From assembly GCF_002854065.1 (NCBI RefSeq), contig NZ_CP024147.1: DNA of 64,000 nt; one strand, 5' to 3'. This document shows positions 12,871 to 22,020 of this stretch, piece by piece. The translations under genes were made by a program, and so were the position numbers. Position 1 is the first letter of the stretch. Each line of letters opens with the position of its first letter. This stretch comes from Escherichia coli. Lineage in GTDB: Bacteria > Pseudomonadota > Gammaproteobacteria > Enterobacterales > Enterobacteriaceae. A model generated the notes under the pieces. It did not search any database and was not told the origin of the DNA. It worked only from the letters and a program-made list of their open reading frames with translations.

Positions 12871-13002
12871 AAAATATTCCATCAATCGTTTGTTAAAAGC
12901 GTAGATAACCATAGACTGGCCCCCTGAATCTCCAGACAACCAATATCACTTAAATAAGTGATAGTCTTAATACTAGTTTTTAGACTAGTCATTGGAGAAC
13001 AG

Positions 13003-13368
13003 ATGATTGATGTCTTAGGGCCGGAGAAACGCAGACGGCGTACCACACAGGAAAAGATCGCAATTGTTCAGCAGAGCTTTGAACCGGGGATGACGGTCTC
13101 CCTCGTTGCCCGGCAACATGGTGTAGCAGCCAGCCAGTTATTTCTCTGGCGTAAGCAATACCAGGAAGGAAGTCTTACTGCTGTCGCCGCCGGAGAACAG
13201 GTTGTTCCTGCCTCTGAACTTGCTGCCGCCATGAAGCAGATTAAAGAACTCCAGCGCCTGCTCGGCAAGAAAACGATGGAAAATGAACTCCTCAAAGAAG
13301 CCGTTGAATATGGACGGGCAAAAAAGTGGATAGCGCACGCGCCCTTATTGCCCGGGGATGGGGAGTAA
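13003..13368 (+). CDS. insC: IS2 protein InsC (OrfA)
   Basis: 121-aa [21 protein letters not shown]..., RBS GGAG upstream; the track ORF starts 15 codons earlier inside the terminal repeat. Confidence 0.95.
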
Positions 13369-14231
13369 GCTTAGTCAGCCGTTGTCTCCGGGTGTCGCGT
13401 GCGCAGTTGCACGTCATTCTCAGACGAACCGATGACTGGATGGATGGCCGCCGCAGTCGTCACACTGATGATACGGATGTGCTTCTCCGTATACACCATG
13501 TTATCGGAGAGCTGCCCACGTATGGTTATCGTCGGGTATGGGCGCTGCTTCGCAGACAGGCAGAACTTGATGGTATGCCTGCGATCAATGCCAAACGTGT
13601 TTACCGGATCATGCGCCAGAATGCGCTGTTGCTTGAGCGAAAACCTGCTGTACCGCCATCGAAACGGGCACATACAGGCAGAGTGGCCGTGAAAGAAAGC
13701 AATCAGCGATGGTGCTCTGACGGGTTCGAGTTCTGCTGTGATAACGGAGAGAGACTGCGTGTCACGTTCGCGCTGGACTGCTGTGATCGTGAGGCACTGC
13801 ACTGGGCGGTCACTACCGGCGGCTTCAACAGTGAAACAGTACAGGACGTCATGCTGGGAGCGGTGGAACGCCGCTTCGGCAACGATCTTCCGTCGTCTCC
13901 AGTGGAGTGGCTGACGGATAATGGTTCATGCTACCGGGCTAATGAAACACGCCAGTTCGCCCGGATGTTGGGACTTGAACCGAAGAACACGGCGGTGCGG
14001 AGTCCGGAGAGTAACGGAATAGCAGAGAGCTTCGTGAAAACGATAAAGCGTGACTACATCAGTATCATGCCCAAACCAGACGGGTTAACGGCAGCAAAGA
14101 ACCTTGCAGAGGCGTTCGAGCATTATAACGAATGGCATCCGCATAGTGCGCTGGGTTATCGCTCGCCACGGGAATATCTGCGGCAGCGGGCTTGTAATGG
14201 GTTAAGTGATAACAGATGTCTGGAAATATAG
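13326..14231 (+). CDS. insD: IS2 transposase InsD (OrfB), IS3 family
   Basis: 301-aa ORF overlapping insC in the -1 frame; DDE-type integrase core. Confidence 0.95.
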
Positions 14232-14439
14232 GGGCAAATCCAAACCACTTATTTAACAACTTGAAAATAAGGTATTTTACCTGGGTTGTTATAAAAGGAT
14301 TGCATTGCGTAAACGCTTTTTATTTACAAAATAATGGGGAAGTGTTACTGCGATTGCGAAAAGTCTGAACCGATTGAATTAAGATAATATAGAAAATCAG
14401 ATACAACAAAAATGGCAGGTTGATGAGGTGAAGATAAAT

Positions 14440-15489: not shown

Positions 15490-15765
15490 GTGGCTTCTGT
15501 TTCTATCAGCTGTCCCTCCTGTTCAGCTACTGACGGGGTGGTGCGTAACGGCAAAAGCACTGCCGGACATCAGCGCTATCTCTGCTCTCACTGCCGTAAA
15601 ACATGGCAACTGCAGTTCACTTACACCGCTTCTCAACCCGGTACGCACCAGAAAATCATTGATATGGCCATGAATGGCGTTGGATGCCGGGCAACCGCCC
15701 GCATTATGGGCGTTGGCCTCAACACGATTTTCCGCCATTTAAAAAACTCAGGCCGCAGTCGGTAA
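15490..15765 (+). CDS. insA: IS1 protein InsA
   Basis: Protein identical to the other two InsA copies; GTG start. Confidence 0.95.
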
Positions 15766-16187
15766 CCTCGCGCATACAGCCGGGCAGTGACGTCATCGTC
15801 TGCGCGGAAATGGACGAACAGTGGGGATACGTCGGGGCTAAATCGCGCCAGCGCTGGCTGTTTTACGCGTATGACAGGCTCCGGAAGACGGTTGTTGCGC
15901 ACGTATTCGGTGAACGCACTATGGCGACGCTGGGGCGTCTTATGAGCCTGCTGTCACCCTTTGACGTGGTGATATGGATGACGGATGGCTGGCCGCTGTA
16001 TGAATCCCGCCTGAAGGGAAAGCTGCACGTAATCAGCAAGCGATATACGCAGCGAATTGAGCGGCATAACCTGAATCTGAGGCAGCACCTGGCACGGCTG
16101 GGACGGAAGTCGCTGTCGTTCTCAAAATCGGTGGAGCTGCATGACAAAGTCATCGGGCATTATCTGAACATAAAACACTATCAATAA
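15684..16187 (+). CDS. insB: IS1 transposase InsB
   Basis: Protein identical to the other two InsB copies. Confidence 0.95.
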
Positions 16188-18847: not shown

Positions 18848-19726
18848 ATGTTTGATTTTGCTTCTTACCATCGCGCAGCAACCCTTGCCGATGCCATCAA
18901 CCTGCTGGCTGACAACCCGCAGGCCAAACTGCTCGCCGGTGGCACTGACGTACTGATTCAGCTCCACCATCACAATGACCGTTATCGCCATATTGTTGAT
19001 ATTCATAATCTGGCGGAGCTGCGGGGAATTACGCTGGCGGAAGATGGCTCGCTACGTATCGGCTCTGCAACGACATTTACCCAGCTAATAGAAGATCCTA
19101 TAACTCAACGTCATCTCCCGGCGTTATGTGCTGCGGCCTCGTCCATTGCTGGACCGCAGATCCGTAACGTCGCTACCTACGGTGGAAATATTTGCAACGG
19201 TGCCACCAGCGCAGATTCTGCCACGCCAACGCTCATTTATGACGCGAAACTGGAGATCCACTCCCCACGCAGTGTTCGTTTCGTCCCGATTAATGGCTTT
19301 CACACCGGGCCGGGCAAAGTGTCTCTTGAGCATGACGAAATCCTTGTCGCCTTTCATTTTCCGCCCCAGCCGAAAGAACACGTGGGCAGCGCGCATTTTA
19401 AATATGCCATGCGCGACGCAATGGATATTTCAACGATTGGCTGCGCCGCACATTGCCGACTGGATAACGGCAATTTCAGCGAATTACGTCTGGCATTTGG
19501 TGTTGCCGCGCCAACGCCGATTCGCTGCCAACATGCCGAACAGACTGCACAAAATGCGCCATTAAACCTGCAAACGCTTGAAGCTATCAGCGAATCTGTC
19601 CTGCAAGATGTCGCCCCGCGTTCTTCATGGCGGGCCAGTAAAGAGTTTCGTCTGCATCTCATCCAGACGATGACCAAAAAAGTGATTAGCGAAGCCGTCG
19701 CCGCGGCGGGGGGAAAATTGCAATGA
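18848..19726 (+). CDS. xdhB: Xanthine dehydrogenase, FAD-binding subunit
   Basis: 292-aa ORF; FAD-binding CO-dehydrogenase-flavoprotein-type fold ([11 protein letters not shown]). Confidence 0.92.
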
Positions 19727-20202
19727 ATCACAGCGAAACAATTACCATCGAATGCACCATTAACGGGATGCCTTTTCAGCTTCATGCCGCACCAGGCACG
19801 CCGCTCTCGGAATTACTCCGCGAACAAGGACTGCTAAGTGTCAAACAAGGGTGCTGCGTGGGTGAATGTGGTGCCTGTACGGTGCTGGTCGACGGCACAG
19901 CAATAGACAGTTGCTTATACCTTGCCGCCTGGGCTGAAGGAAAAGAGATCCGCACGCTGGAAGGTGAAGCGAAAGGCGGAAAACTTTCTCATGTTCAGCA
20001 GGCTTATGCGAAATCCGGCGCAGTGCAGTGCGGGTTTTGTACGCCTGGCCTGATTATGGCTACCACGGCAATGCTGGCGAAACCACGCGAGAAGCCATTA
20101 ACCATTACGGAAATTCGTCGCGGACTGGCGGGAAATCTTTGTCGCTGCACGGGGTATCAGATGATTGTAAATACAGTTCTGGATTGCGAGAAAACGAAGT
20201 AA
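19723..20202 (+). CDS. xdhC: Xanthine dehydrogenase, 2Fe-2S subunit
   Basis: 159-aa ORF with two Cys clusters ([11 protein letters not shown]; CGFCTPG ... CRCTGY); ATGA overlap with xdhB. Confidence 0.92.
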
Positions 20203-20208
20203 AAGGAT

Positions 20209-20232
20209 ATCCGGCCTGAATTCAGGCCGGAT
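20209..20232. other. Perfect 24-bp palindrome between convergent xdhC and ygeV
   Basis: ATCCGGCCTGAATTCAGGCCGGAT; no flanking U-run on either strand; possibly a bidirectional stem-loop. Confidence 0.4.
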
Positions 20233-20241
20233 TCACTGAGG

Positions 20242-22020
20242 TTATGTGTTTAACAACTCATATTTCTTAATCTTGCGATAGAGCGTAGCAATGCCGATGC
20301 CCAGTTCATCAGCAACTTGCTTCTTGCTGTTATGACGTGAAAGCGCCTCGCGGATCATTTGCTTTTCCATCTCCTCCAGCGCCGTGCCGCCCGCATCATC
20401 GAGTGACAGGTGTGCCTCAGTGACCTCTGTTACATCACTTTGCTCCGTTGTGCCATTATTCAGCAGATTTGGCGGCAATAGCGTGCTGTCGATAACTTCA
20501 CCTGAAGGAACAACGTTAACCAGATATTCCATCAAATTGCTTAACTCGCGCAGGTTTCCGGGCCAACGATGCTTACGCAATATTTCGACGACATCGGGAG
20601 CAATGCCAGGATAAACCGATCCCAGACGACGGGTATGCAGATGTAAAAAGTAATGCACCAGTAGTTCAATATCTTCCTGACGTTCACGCAGCGGTGGCAG
20701 AGTTATCGGGATAACATTAAGTCGGTAGAAGAGATCTTCGCGGAATTTACCTTCGGCAATGAACTGGGCCAAATTCTGGTTAGTTGCAGAAATGATGCGA
20801 ATGTCGACTTGTATTGGGCTACTGGCACCAATCGGCAGAATTTCACGTGCCTCAATAGCGCGCAGTAATTTAGCCTGCAACATTAATGGCATATCACCTA
20901 TTTCATCTAGAAACAGCGTGCCCGTATTCGCCGCCTGAATCAACCCTGTTTTACCGTTGGCAGAAGCGCCAGTAAATGCGCCTTTAACATAACCGAACAG
21001 TTCGCTCTCCAGAAGCTGCTCCGGAATCGCGGCACAGTTGATAGCAATAAAGGGTTTATTCCGTCTTCCGCTCAACTTATGGATTGCACGGGCGACGACT
21101 TCTTTACCCGTGCCGCTTTCACCAACCACCATAACGCTGGATGGGCTGGGTGCAATACGGCTAATGAGTCGTTTTAATTGCCGCATAACACGGCACTCGC
21201 CAACCAATTGTTCAATATGCGGTTCATCAGGTGCATTTGCTACAGAAAAACTGGTATGCGATTGGTGAAACGCCATTAAAAATAATTGTCGGCCCTGAAT
21301 GTTATGCAATTGGCCAATGATTAATTCACTTTTATCGTCCCACGAAACAATATGCTGCATATGTCCATGGGTAAAATTACTCTCAAATGTTAATGGTCTG
21401 AAACGGATAGGTTTCCCAATAATATTATTTTGTACAATACCAAGTGTTTTTAAGGCAGTCTGATTAACAAACTGAACCCGACTTTCATCATCAACAACTA
21501 ATACGCCCTGATCCATATTATCGATCATGGTCGCGAATATTTTACTGATGTTATCTCCTGGCCCCTGATCCTCCAGAAGTTTCGAAACAAAAATGGTGGA
21601 TATATGGCGAACATAATCAGAAAATTCGCGTAAATTATCACTGATATGCTCTTGTTGCTCGTGGGTAACGGCAATCAAACTTATCACCCCAACACAACGA
21701 TCCTGTAAAATGACAGGCGTACCCAGAAATGCTTTTTCGCGGCAATTTTCTTTACTATCGCAACCTTCGCAAAGGGGATCGAAGCGAGACTGTGTCACAA
21801 CTTTTTCAGTTTTCGTTTCCAGGACGTGGCGGAGCAGGCGTGAGTTGCCGCTCAACTGGCGACCAAGAAACTTCCCATACGCGCCAGTTCCGGCGACGCG
21901 ACACAAGTTTTCATCAACGATCTCAACCTCAAGCTGCAAAACGCTGGCAAGCATTCTGGCAAAACGCTGAATTGTCGGTTGAATTTGCATCAATACTGAC
22001 TGCGTAGTAGCAAGCTCCAT
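20242..22020 (-). CDS. ygeV: Sigma-54-dependent transcriptional activator (enhancer-binding protein)
   Basis: 592-aa ORF with central AAA+ domain (VVGESGTGKE Walker A; GAFTGA motif) and C-terminal HTH. Confidence 0.92.
   Translation of the reverse strand: MELATTQSVLMQIQPTIQRFARMLASVLQLEVEIVDENLCRVAGTGAYGKFLGRQLSGNSRLLRHVLETKTEKVVTQSRFDPLCEGCDSKENCREKAFLGTPVILQDRCVGVISLIAVTHEQQEHISDNLREFSDYVRHISTIFVSKLLEDQGPGDNISKIFATMIDNMDQGVLVVDDESRVQFVNQTALKTLGIVQNNIIGKPIRFRPLTFESNFTHGHMQHIVSWDDKSELIIGQLHNIQGRQLFLMAFHQSHTSFSVANAPDEPHIEQLVGECRVMRQLKRLISRIAPSPSSVMVVGESGTGKEVVARAIHKLSGRRNKPFIAINCAAIPEQLLESELFGYVKGAFTGASANGKTGLIQAANTGTLFLDEIGDMPLMLQAKLLRAIEAREILPIGASSPIQVDIRIISATNQNLAQFIAEGKFREDLFYRLNVIPITLPPLRERQEDIELLVHYFLHLHTRRLGSVYPGIAPDVVEILRKHRWPGNLRELSNLMEYLVNVVPSGEVIDSTLLPPNLLNNGTTEQSDVTEVTEAHLSLDDAGGTALEEMEKQMIREALSRHNSKKQVADELGIGIATLYRKIKKYELLNT

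Follow-up and report, generated by a model that had tools for sequence, protein, structure and literature searches.

A single-copy palindrome between the convergent Escherichia coli genes xdhC and ygeV is very probably an RNA hairpin at the 3′ ends of both transcripts

The xdhC–ygeV spacer and its palindrome

The window that we analysed is a 64,000-nucleotide stretch of E. coli DNA in which xdhC, the last gene of xdhABC, and ygeV, coding for a sigma-54-dependent regulator, converge on a spacer of 39 nt. The features of this locus are as follows.

19723..20202, plus strand: xdhC coding sequence, last gene of xdhABC, with its stop TAA at 20200-20202, 6 nt before the palindrome
20200..20208, minus strand: tail of the ygeV transcript past the stem, AUCCUUUUA, with a distal U-run, found by terminator scan; its complement includes the xdhC stop TAA
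20204..20237, plus strand: optional lower-stem extension with bulges, in which AGGA (20204-20207) pairs with UC.CU (20233-20237), by RNA fold
20209..20232, either strand: perfect 24-bp palindrome, as RNA a 10-bp stem with 7 G-C pairs and a 4-nt AAUU loop
20242..22020, minus strand: ygeV coding sequence, with its stop (TTA on the plus strand) at 20242-20244, 9 nt from the palindrome

The palindrome, ATCCGGCCTGAATTCAGGCCGGAT at 20209-20232, consists of two 12-nt arms without a spacer, and both its perfection and its convergent setting are as the initial annotation had described them: the open reading frames end at 20202 (xdhC) and 20242 (ygeV, minus strand), so that the reported gaps of 6 nt to the xdhC stop and 9 nt to the ygeV stop are correct. 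Its centre is an EcoRI site (GAATTC, window 20218-20223) that E. coli E69 (GAATGC) and Citrobacter sp. R56 (GAGTGC) have lost. The palindrome exceeds chance expectation, as 100 shuffles yielded zero matches to the 24-mer at up to 3 mismatches, and an inverted repeat with a perfect arm of at least 12 nt and a spacer of 0-8 nt arose once when the entire window was shuffled 30 times at first order (a rough figure). Folded as RNA, the hairpin has the same energy on both strands (–18.8 kcal/mol, z –7.2), and an Rfam scan of the region with E values up to 10 returned noise only and no known RNA family.

What follows the stem differs between the strands. The initial annotation had stated that neither strand carries a U-run, and for the xdhC (plus) strand, with its tail TCACTGAGG, this is correct; the RNA tail UCACUGAG has 2 U in 8 nt and lacks the U-tract of an intrinsic terminator, taken here as about 7-9 U-rich nt directly past the stem. 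For the ygeV (minus) strand the statement does not hold, as the stem is followed by ATCCTTTTAC, with 5 T in 8 nt, and the distal U-run (AUCCUUUUAC) is caught by a terminator scan. This run is 4 long and begins 4 nt past the stem; the RNA tail AUCCUUUU has 5 U in 8 nt with a poor proximal part (AUCC), and passes a simple terminator scan.

Positions 20134-20334 of the window equal NC_000913.3 3003900-3004100 base for base (201 bp checked), and K-12 data are therefore transferable to the locus with an offset of 2,983,766; the palindrome itself corresponds to NC_000913.3 3003975-3003998. The window as a whole is not K-12: over most of its length it is 98–99% identical to MG1655 (BLAST), with a different IS content that includes extra IS1 copies. 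Three IS1 copies are present (7436-8133, 8227-8924 and 15490-16187), two of which are tandemly oriented at a spacing of about 790 bp, IS2 (12912-14243) is inverted relative to MG1655 in a rearranged region, and the yqeH-ygeO region, an ETT2 remnant, is mostly missing. None of the complete E. coli genomes searched has the same IS1 junction upstream of xdhA, and the strain may therefore be Shigella-like or unsampled.

A hairpin at this position is typical of the neighbourhood, as seven of the eight convergent spacers in the MG1655 equivalent of the 64-kb window hold comparable hairpins with z scores of –4 or lower. Four of these are short one-hairpin spacers, some without a good U-tract (fldB-ygfX and bglA-ygfF), and two hold true REPs. 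The longest perfect inverted repeat of the window lies elsewhere, at 7255-7289, with 16-nt arms and a 3-nt spacer (GAATGGTTCAAAATTG CTA CAATTTTGAACCATTC); it starts 10 nt past the yqeG stop and IS1 comes shortly after it. In Term-seq the primary 3′ end of yqeG falls at MG1655 2987127, some 6 nt past the equivalent hairpin, and we therefore take this repeat to be the yqeG terminator.

RNA 3′ ends at the hairpin

Mapping of the two 3′ ends had been named beforehand as a test of the palindrome, and published data place the ends of both ygeV and xdhC at the hairpin. A re-analysis (PMC10687069) of the Term-seq data of Dar & Sorek 2018 lists primary 3′ ends for both genes, whose peak coordinates were converted to NC_000913.3 and then mapped onto the window. 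These peaks, and a Rho-dependent termination region nearby, are as follows.

20199..20209, dominant 20201, minus strand (NC_000913.3 3003965-3003975, dominant 3003967): primary ygeV 3′-end peak, Term-seq signal 0.97, adjusted p 6e-67, 1e-38 and 2e-49; 8 nt past the stem, at the last U
20232..20239, dominant 20235, plus strand (NC_000913.3 3003998-3004005, dominant 3004001): primary xdhC (xdhABC) 3′-end peak, Term-seq signal 0.64, adjusted p 4e-9, 1 and 0; 3 nt past the stem, without a U-tract
20046 (NC_000913.3 3003812), minus strand: peak of a Rho-dependent termination region, Rho score 3.06, p 8.4e-5 (PMC7815308, Supplementary file 2)

The ygeV RNA ends in ...GGCCGGAUAUCCUUUU and the xdhC RNA in ...GGCCGGAUUCA, with UCA between stem and RNA end in the latter, and a stretch of 35 nt spanning the hairpin is common to both transcripts. 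Steady-state 3′ ends do not separate termination from exonuclease trimming. The xdhC end is significant in only two of the three Term-seq replicates; both genes are poorly expressed in LB, where xdh is barely expressed at all. Both ends are absent from the RNAtag-seq sheet of PMC10687069, which leaves Term-seq as the sole data set showing them among those examined, and the TERMITe supplements do not mention ygeV or xdhC.

On both strands the 10-bp, GC-rich stem and 4-nt loop fall within the range of intrinsic terminators (stem of 5-14 bp, loop of 3-8 nt). The ygeV side has intrinsic-terminator geometry, with a stem, a distal U-run and an RNA end 8 nt past the stem, inside the usual 7-9 nt, whereas the xdhC end, at 3 nt, falls outside it. 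The E. coli locus differs from an intrinsic terminator in that the plus strand has no U-tract and the minus-strand run is only 4 long and set 4 nt away from the stem. Because this run is distal and short and the proximal part of the tail reads AUCC, the intrinsic efficiency on the ygeV side is probably low. This is in line with the DirectRNA-seq of Adams et al. 2021 (PMC7815308), performed with and without bicyclomycin, in which the peak of the Rho region lies antisense to xdhC and 163 nt beyond the hairpin on the ygeV strand, which shows that part of ygeV transcription runs past the hairpin and is then ended by Rho. No plus-strand Rho region is listed for the xdhC–ygeV spacer in the same study.

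On the xdhC side a closer likeness is found in the precise 3′ ends that Dar & Sorek 2018 (PMC6061677) described right after stable stem-loops without U-tracts, which protect Rho-terminated RNAs from 3′-5′ exonucleases. The xdhC end likewise follows a stable, U-less stem-loop immediately and is precise, and by analogy an end 3 nt past such a stem appears typical of a protective or pausing hairpin. The likeness is incomplete, as the protective stem-loops belong to Rho-terminated RNAs, whereas the sole Rho signal here is on the strand opposite xdhC.

Both sides together recall the bidirectional, hairpin-encoding elements that Wang et al. (10.1101/2022.10.23.513370), summarising Ju et al. 2019, describe as terminators for convergent gene pairs of E. 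coli and report to act as pause sites at which converging polymerases collide. As far as they are characterised there, the elements of Ju, Li & Liu 2019 share with our locus a single hairpin in a short convergent spacer (here 39 nt), 3′ ends at both feet (20201 on the minus and 20235 on the plus strand), overlapping RNAs (35 nt) and one side that is not canonical intrinsic-terminator-like. Going by the same account, the locus differs from them in that its ygeV side has a usable U-run.

Copy number and conservation

Our searches covered 5426 E. coli genomes, using a 39-mer (blastn, E up to 10) and a 30-mer (megablast). The 39-nt query matched two places per genome in 5276 genomes, these being both strands of one palindrome, and the 30-nt query, which in megablast requires an exact 28-mer spanning the entire palindrome, gave a single match per genome in 5232 genomes. 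The palindrome is therefore unique per genome and almost invariant, being exact in at least 5232 of the 5276 E. coli genomes. Copies elsewhere in the genome, which had been suggested as a further test, were not found in these searches, each E. coli genome holding the palindrome in one place.

While the palindrome holds, the 15 remaining bases of the spacer are polymorphic, with several common variants. In about 1078 genomes, including a sampled O25:H4 strain, the flanks show coordinated changes, namely A-to-T and T-to-A substitutions and the deletion of one G. Among the sampled strains the variant sites are window 20205-20206, 20235 and 20237: TCACTG has become TCTCAG by two substitutions in both sampled variants, and the G deletion is found in the O25:H4 strain only. 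Single sampled strains each carry A20207G, G20240T or T20232C, the last affecting the outermost pair. When folded, the phylogroup-B2-like flank changes retain a different lower-stem extension on both strands.

Two further observations concern the distribution of the element. In E. coli ECOD1 (NZ_CM129827.1) IS1A is inserted at the 3′ end of xdhC, and the palindrome is deleted together with ygeV and everything through to just short of uacT; since the whole ygeV-ygfT block is gone, it is dispensable in this strain. A 20-nt exact partial copy, GGCCTGAATTCAGGCCGGAT, occurs at about 16 places in small (3-7 kb) Col-like plasmids of Escherichia, Klebsiella and Salmonella (for example NZ_JCAPUO010000003.1), in unannotated DNA whose flanks are unrelated to the xdhC–ygeV spacer, and is probably an independent hairpin without a link to this locus.

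Beyond E. coli, an XdhC probe led to 80 loci, from which the spacer was extracted wherever ygeV was the convergent neighbour, yielding 21 enterobacterial spacers. Eighteen of these are 30-63 nt long, and most hold a strong GC-rich hairpin, often of unrelated sequence, those of Buttiauxella sp. B2 and Arsenophonus being weaker. The core GGCCTGAATTCAGGCC is found in Escherichia sp. E1V33, E. whittamii, ‘Citrobacter’ sp. MGH106 and E. coli E69, and also in Citrobacter sp. R56 and Klebsiella indica, and among the homologous hairpins the loop varies (AATT, AATG, AGTG). Hairpins of unrelated sequence occupy the same site in Trabulsiella, Atlantibacter, C. freundii M-21, Pluralibacter, Yokenella, Buttiauxella and Arsenophonus.

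Where the stems vary, pairing is kept. In Klebsiella indica two basal pairs are changed on both sides (A-U to G-C and U-A to A-U), a compensatory C-G to G-C change separates two Trabulsiella strains, and one G-U wobble occurs among the orthologous stems. An alignment of 11 sequences shows double changes in 4 of 12 pairs, and its covariation score was matched by two of 500 shuffles, with all slid controls far lower; the sample is small and the core 8 pairs hardly vary. As the structure is kept across genera and the sequence is not, these comparisons argue for an RNA element rather than a protein operator.

The xdhC-side tail follows a different course. Directly past the stem on the plus strand the three deepest Escherichia lineages sampled (Escherichia sp. 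E1V33, E. whittamii and ‘Citrobacter’ sp. MGH106) carry TTTTTT, which makes the hairpin a canonical xdhC terminator in these strains (the E1V33 tail on this side reads TTTTTGATG). The corresponding tail is TTCACTG or TTCTCAG in E. coli (window 20233-20241) and TTTACGG in E69. By parsimony among these sequences, the xdhC-side U-tract seems to have been lost on the line to E. coli.

Alternative readings and a probable role

A palindrome between convergent genes could owe its presence to the spread of an element rather than to a local function, as a member or remnant of the REP/BIME repeats. The likeness is considerable: REPs (Harris et al. 2026, 10.64898/2026.03.23.713779) are extragenic palindromes found between convergent genes, they share the GCCGGAT/ATCCGGC core and serve as 3′-UTR terminators and stabilisers, and the arms AGGCCGGAT / ATCCGGCCT match the outer stem GCCGGATGCGGCG...CGCCTTATCCGTCCTAC of a Y-type REP seen in the nearby yqeA-yqeB spacer. 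REP/BIME-like repeats also fill the xdhC–ygeV spacer itself in Citrobacter amalonaticus, a Citrobacter MAG and Buttiauxella agrestis, the last with a 349-nt array of about five tandem units, and the site has been repeatedly colonised by extragenic palindromes. However, the E. coli palindrome is single-copy whereas REPs number hundreds per genome; it lacks the GTAG/CTAC that adjoins a REP stem (its flanks are GGAT| and |TCAC), is perfect over its 24 nt where a REP is about 35 nt long, imperfect and internally mismatched, and has the arms in swapped order. GCCGGAT/ATCCGGC stems are found in plain terminators too, for instance on the minus strand at window 899-925, where a canonical terminator, GGGCCGGATGT(GCTGT)ACATCCGGCCC followed by TTTTTT, has the same core; the core is widespread among E. 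coli terminators, and its presence does not identify a REP. We therefore rejected REP/BIME membership on copy number, the missing GTAG, length and perfection, and regard this origin as very unlikely. By analogy, the xdhC–ygeV hairpin probably has the same two effects on RNA as REPs do, as terminator and stabiliser.

The initial annotation had also offered a binding site for a dimeric protein, and the perfect two-fold symmetry across 24 bp and the very high conservation within E. coli would suit an operator in duplex DNA, bound by YgeV, which we take to have a C-terminal DNA-binding domain as in sigma-54 activators, or by another regulator of the purine-catabolism cluster. This part of the annotation was not borne out. 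The site is not near a promoter, as it is enclosed by the stop codons of both genes, with the ygeV/ygeW promoter region 1.8 kb and the xdhA start 3.7 kb away, and gSELEX peaks for RpoN and NtrC are reported elsewhere, in the ygeV/ygeW spacer and at the xdhB/xdhC boundary. Nor does the motif recur: it has one place per genome, and a search of the window for the 24-mer (up to 3 mismatches) and for 9-mer and 12-mer half-sites gave no real further copy, the three half-site matches with one mismatch being chance matches inside IS1 coding sequence. Finally, the sequence is not conserved alongside the regulator, as the symmetry centre is altered in relatives (AATG, AGTG) and genera whose YgeV is 77–82% identical bear hairpins of unrelated sequence at the same place. 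We rejected a transcription-factor operator on these three counts and regard it as very unlikely.

Very unlikely, too, is a chance palindrome or a purely DNA-level structure (a cruciform, a recombination or a replication signal) without an RNA role, to which the absent spacer, the central EcoRI site GAATTC and the recurrence of the 20-nt part in small Col-like plasmids might point: chance is improbable by the shuffle tests, a length of 24 bp is small for a stably extruded cruciform, the palindrome is where RNA 3′ ends map, and the compensatory changes and the G-U wobble across genera make sense only in RNA.

We consider it highly likely, in contrast to these alternatives, that the palindrome is a single-copy RNA hairpin acting from both strands as the 3′-end element of the convergent xdhABC and ygeV units. 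The bidirectional RNA stem-loop that the initial annotation had put forward as its other option is thus supported by the same stable fold on both strands and by Term-seq ends of both genes at its foot, and it is further backed by the other genera, which keep the hairpin without its sequence and with compensatory changes.

What the data show are the hairpin, its occurrence once per genome, its conservation and the mapped ends; from here on we infer how polymerase may be released on each strand. On the ygeV side the palindrome would act as a modest intrinsic terminator, the stem being followed by the uridine-containing tail described above and the RNA end 8 nt on, and polymerases that escape it would be halted by Rho about 160 nt on, within antisense xdhC. 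On the xdhC side, where the U-tract is missing, the hairpin most likely brings about no classical polymerase release. Instead, it probably defines the stable end by blocking 3′-to-5′ exonucleases once termination has taken place further downstream, and/or by pausing polymerase so that converging polymerases meet there.

The feature is real but ordinary, and genome-wide 3′-end maps of K-12 have already captured it. The only mildly new point, suggested by the comparison between species, is that the xdhC side has lost its U-tract in a lineage-specific way. A far-reaching reading of this loss, which we regard as improbable, is that in E. coli xdhABC transcription ends by a leaky, non-canonical route, through either polymerase collision or Rho plus trimming, and that under induction read-through antisense to ygeV would damp this gene in an excludon-like manner. 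If true, the decay of one half of a bidirectional terminator would have given rise to excludon-like feedback on a putative sigma-54 regulator.

For annotation, the xdhABC and ygeV units gain defined 3′ ends, at MG1655 3004001 and 3003967, respectively. Read in one direction, the hairpin would serve as a weak intrinsic terminator; read in the other, where no U-tract follows, it would protect the RNA end or pause polymerase. Sister species have the xdhC-side U-tract and E. coli does not, and the locus may be regarded as a small natural experiment on the decay of a bidirectional terminator, and as such it would be useful for studies of collision- or Rho-assisted termination at convergent genes.
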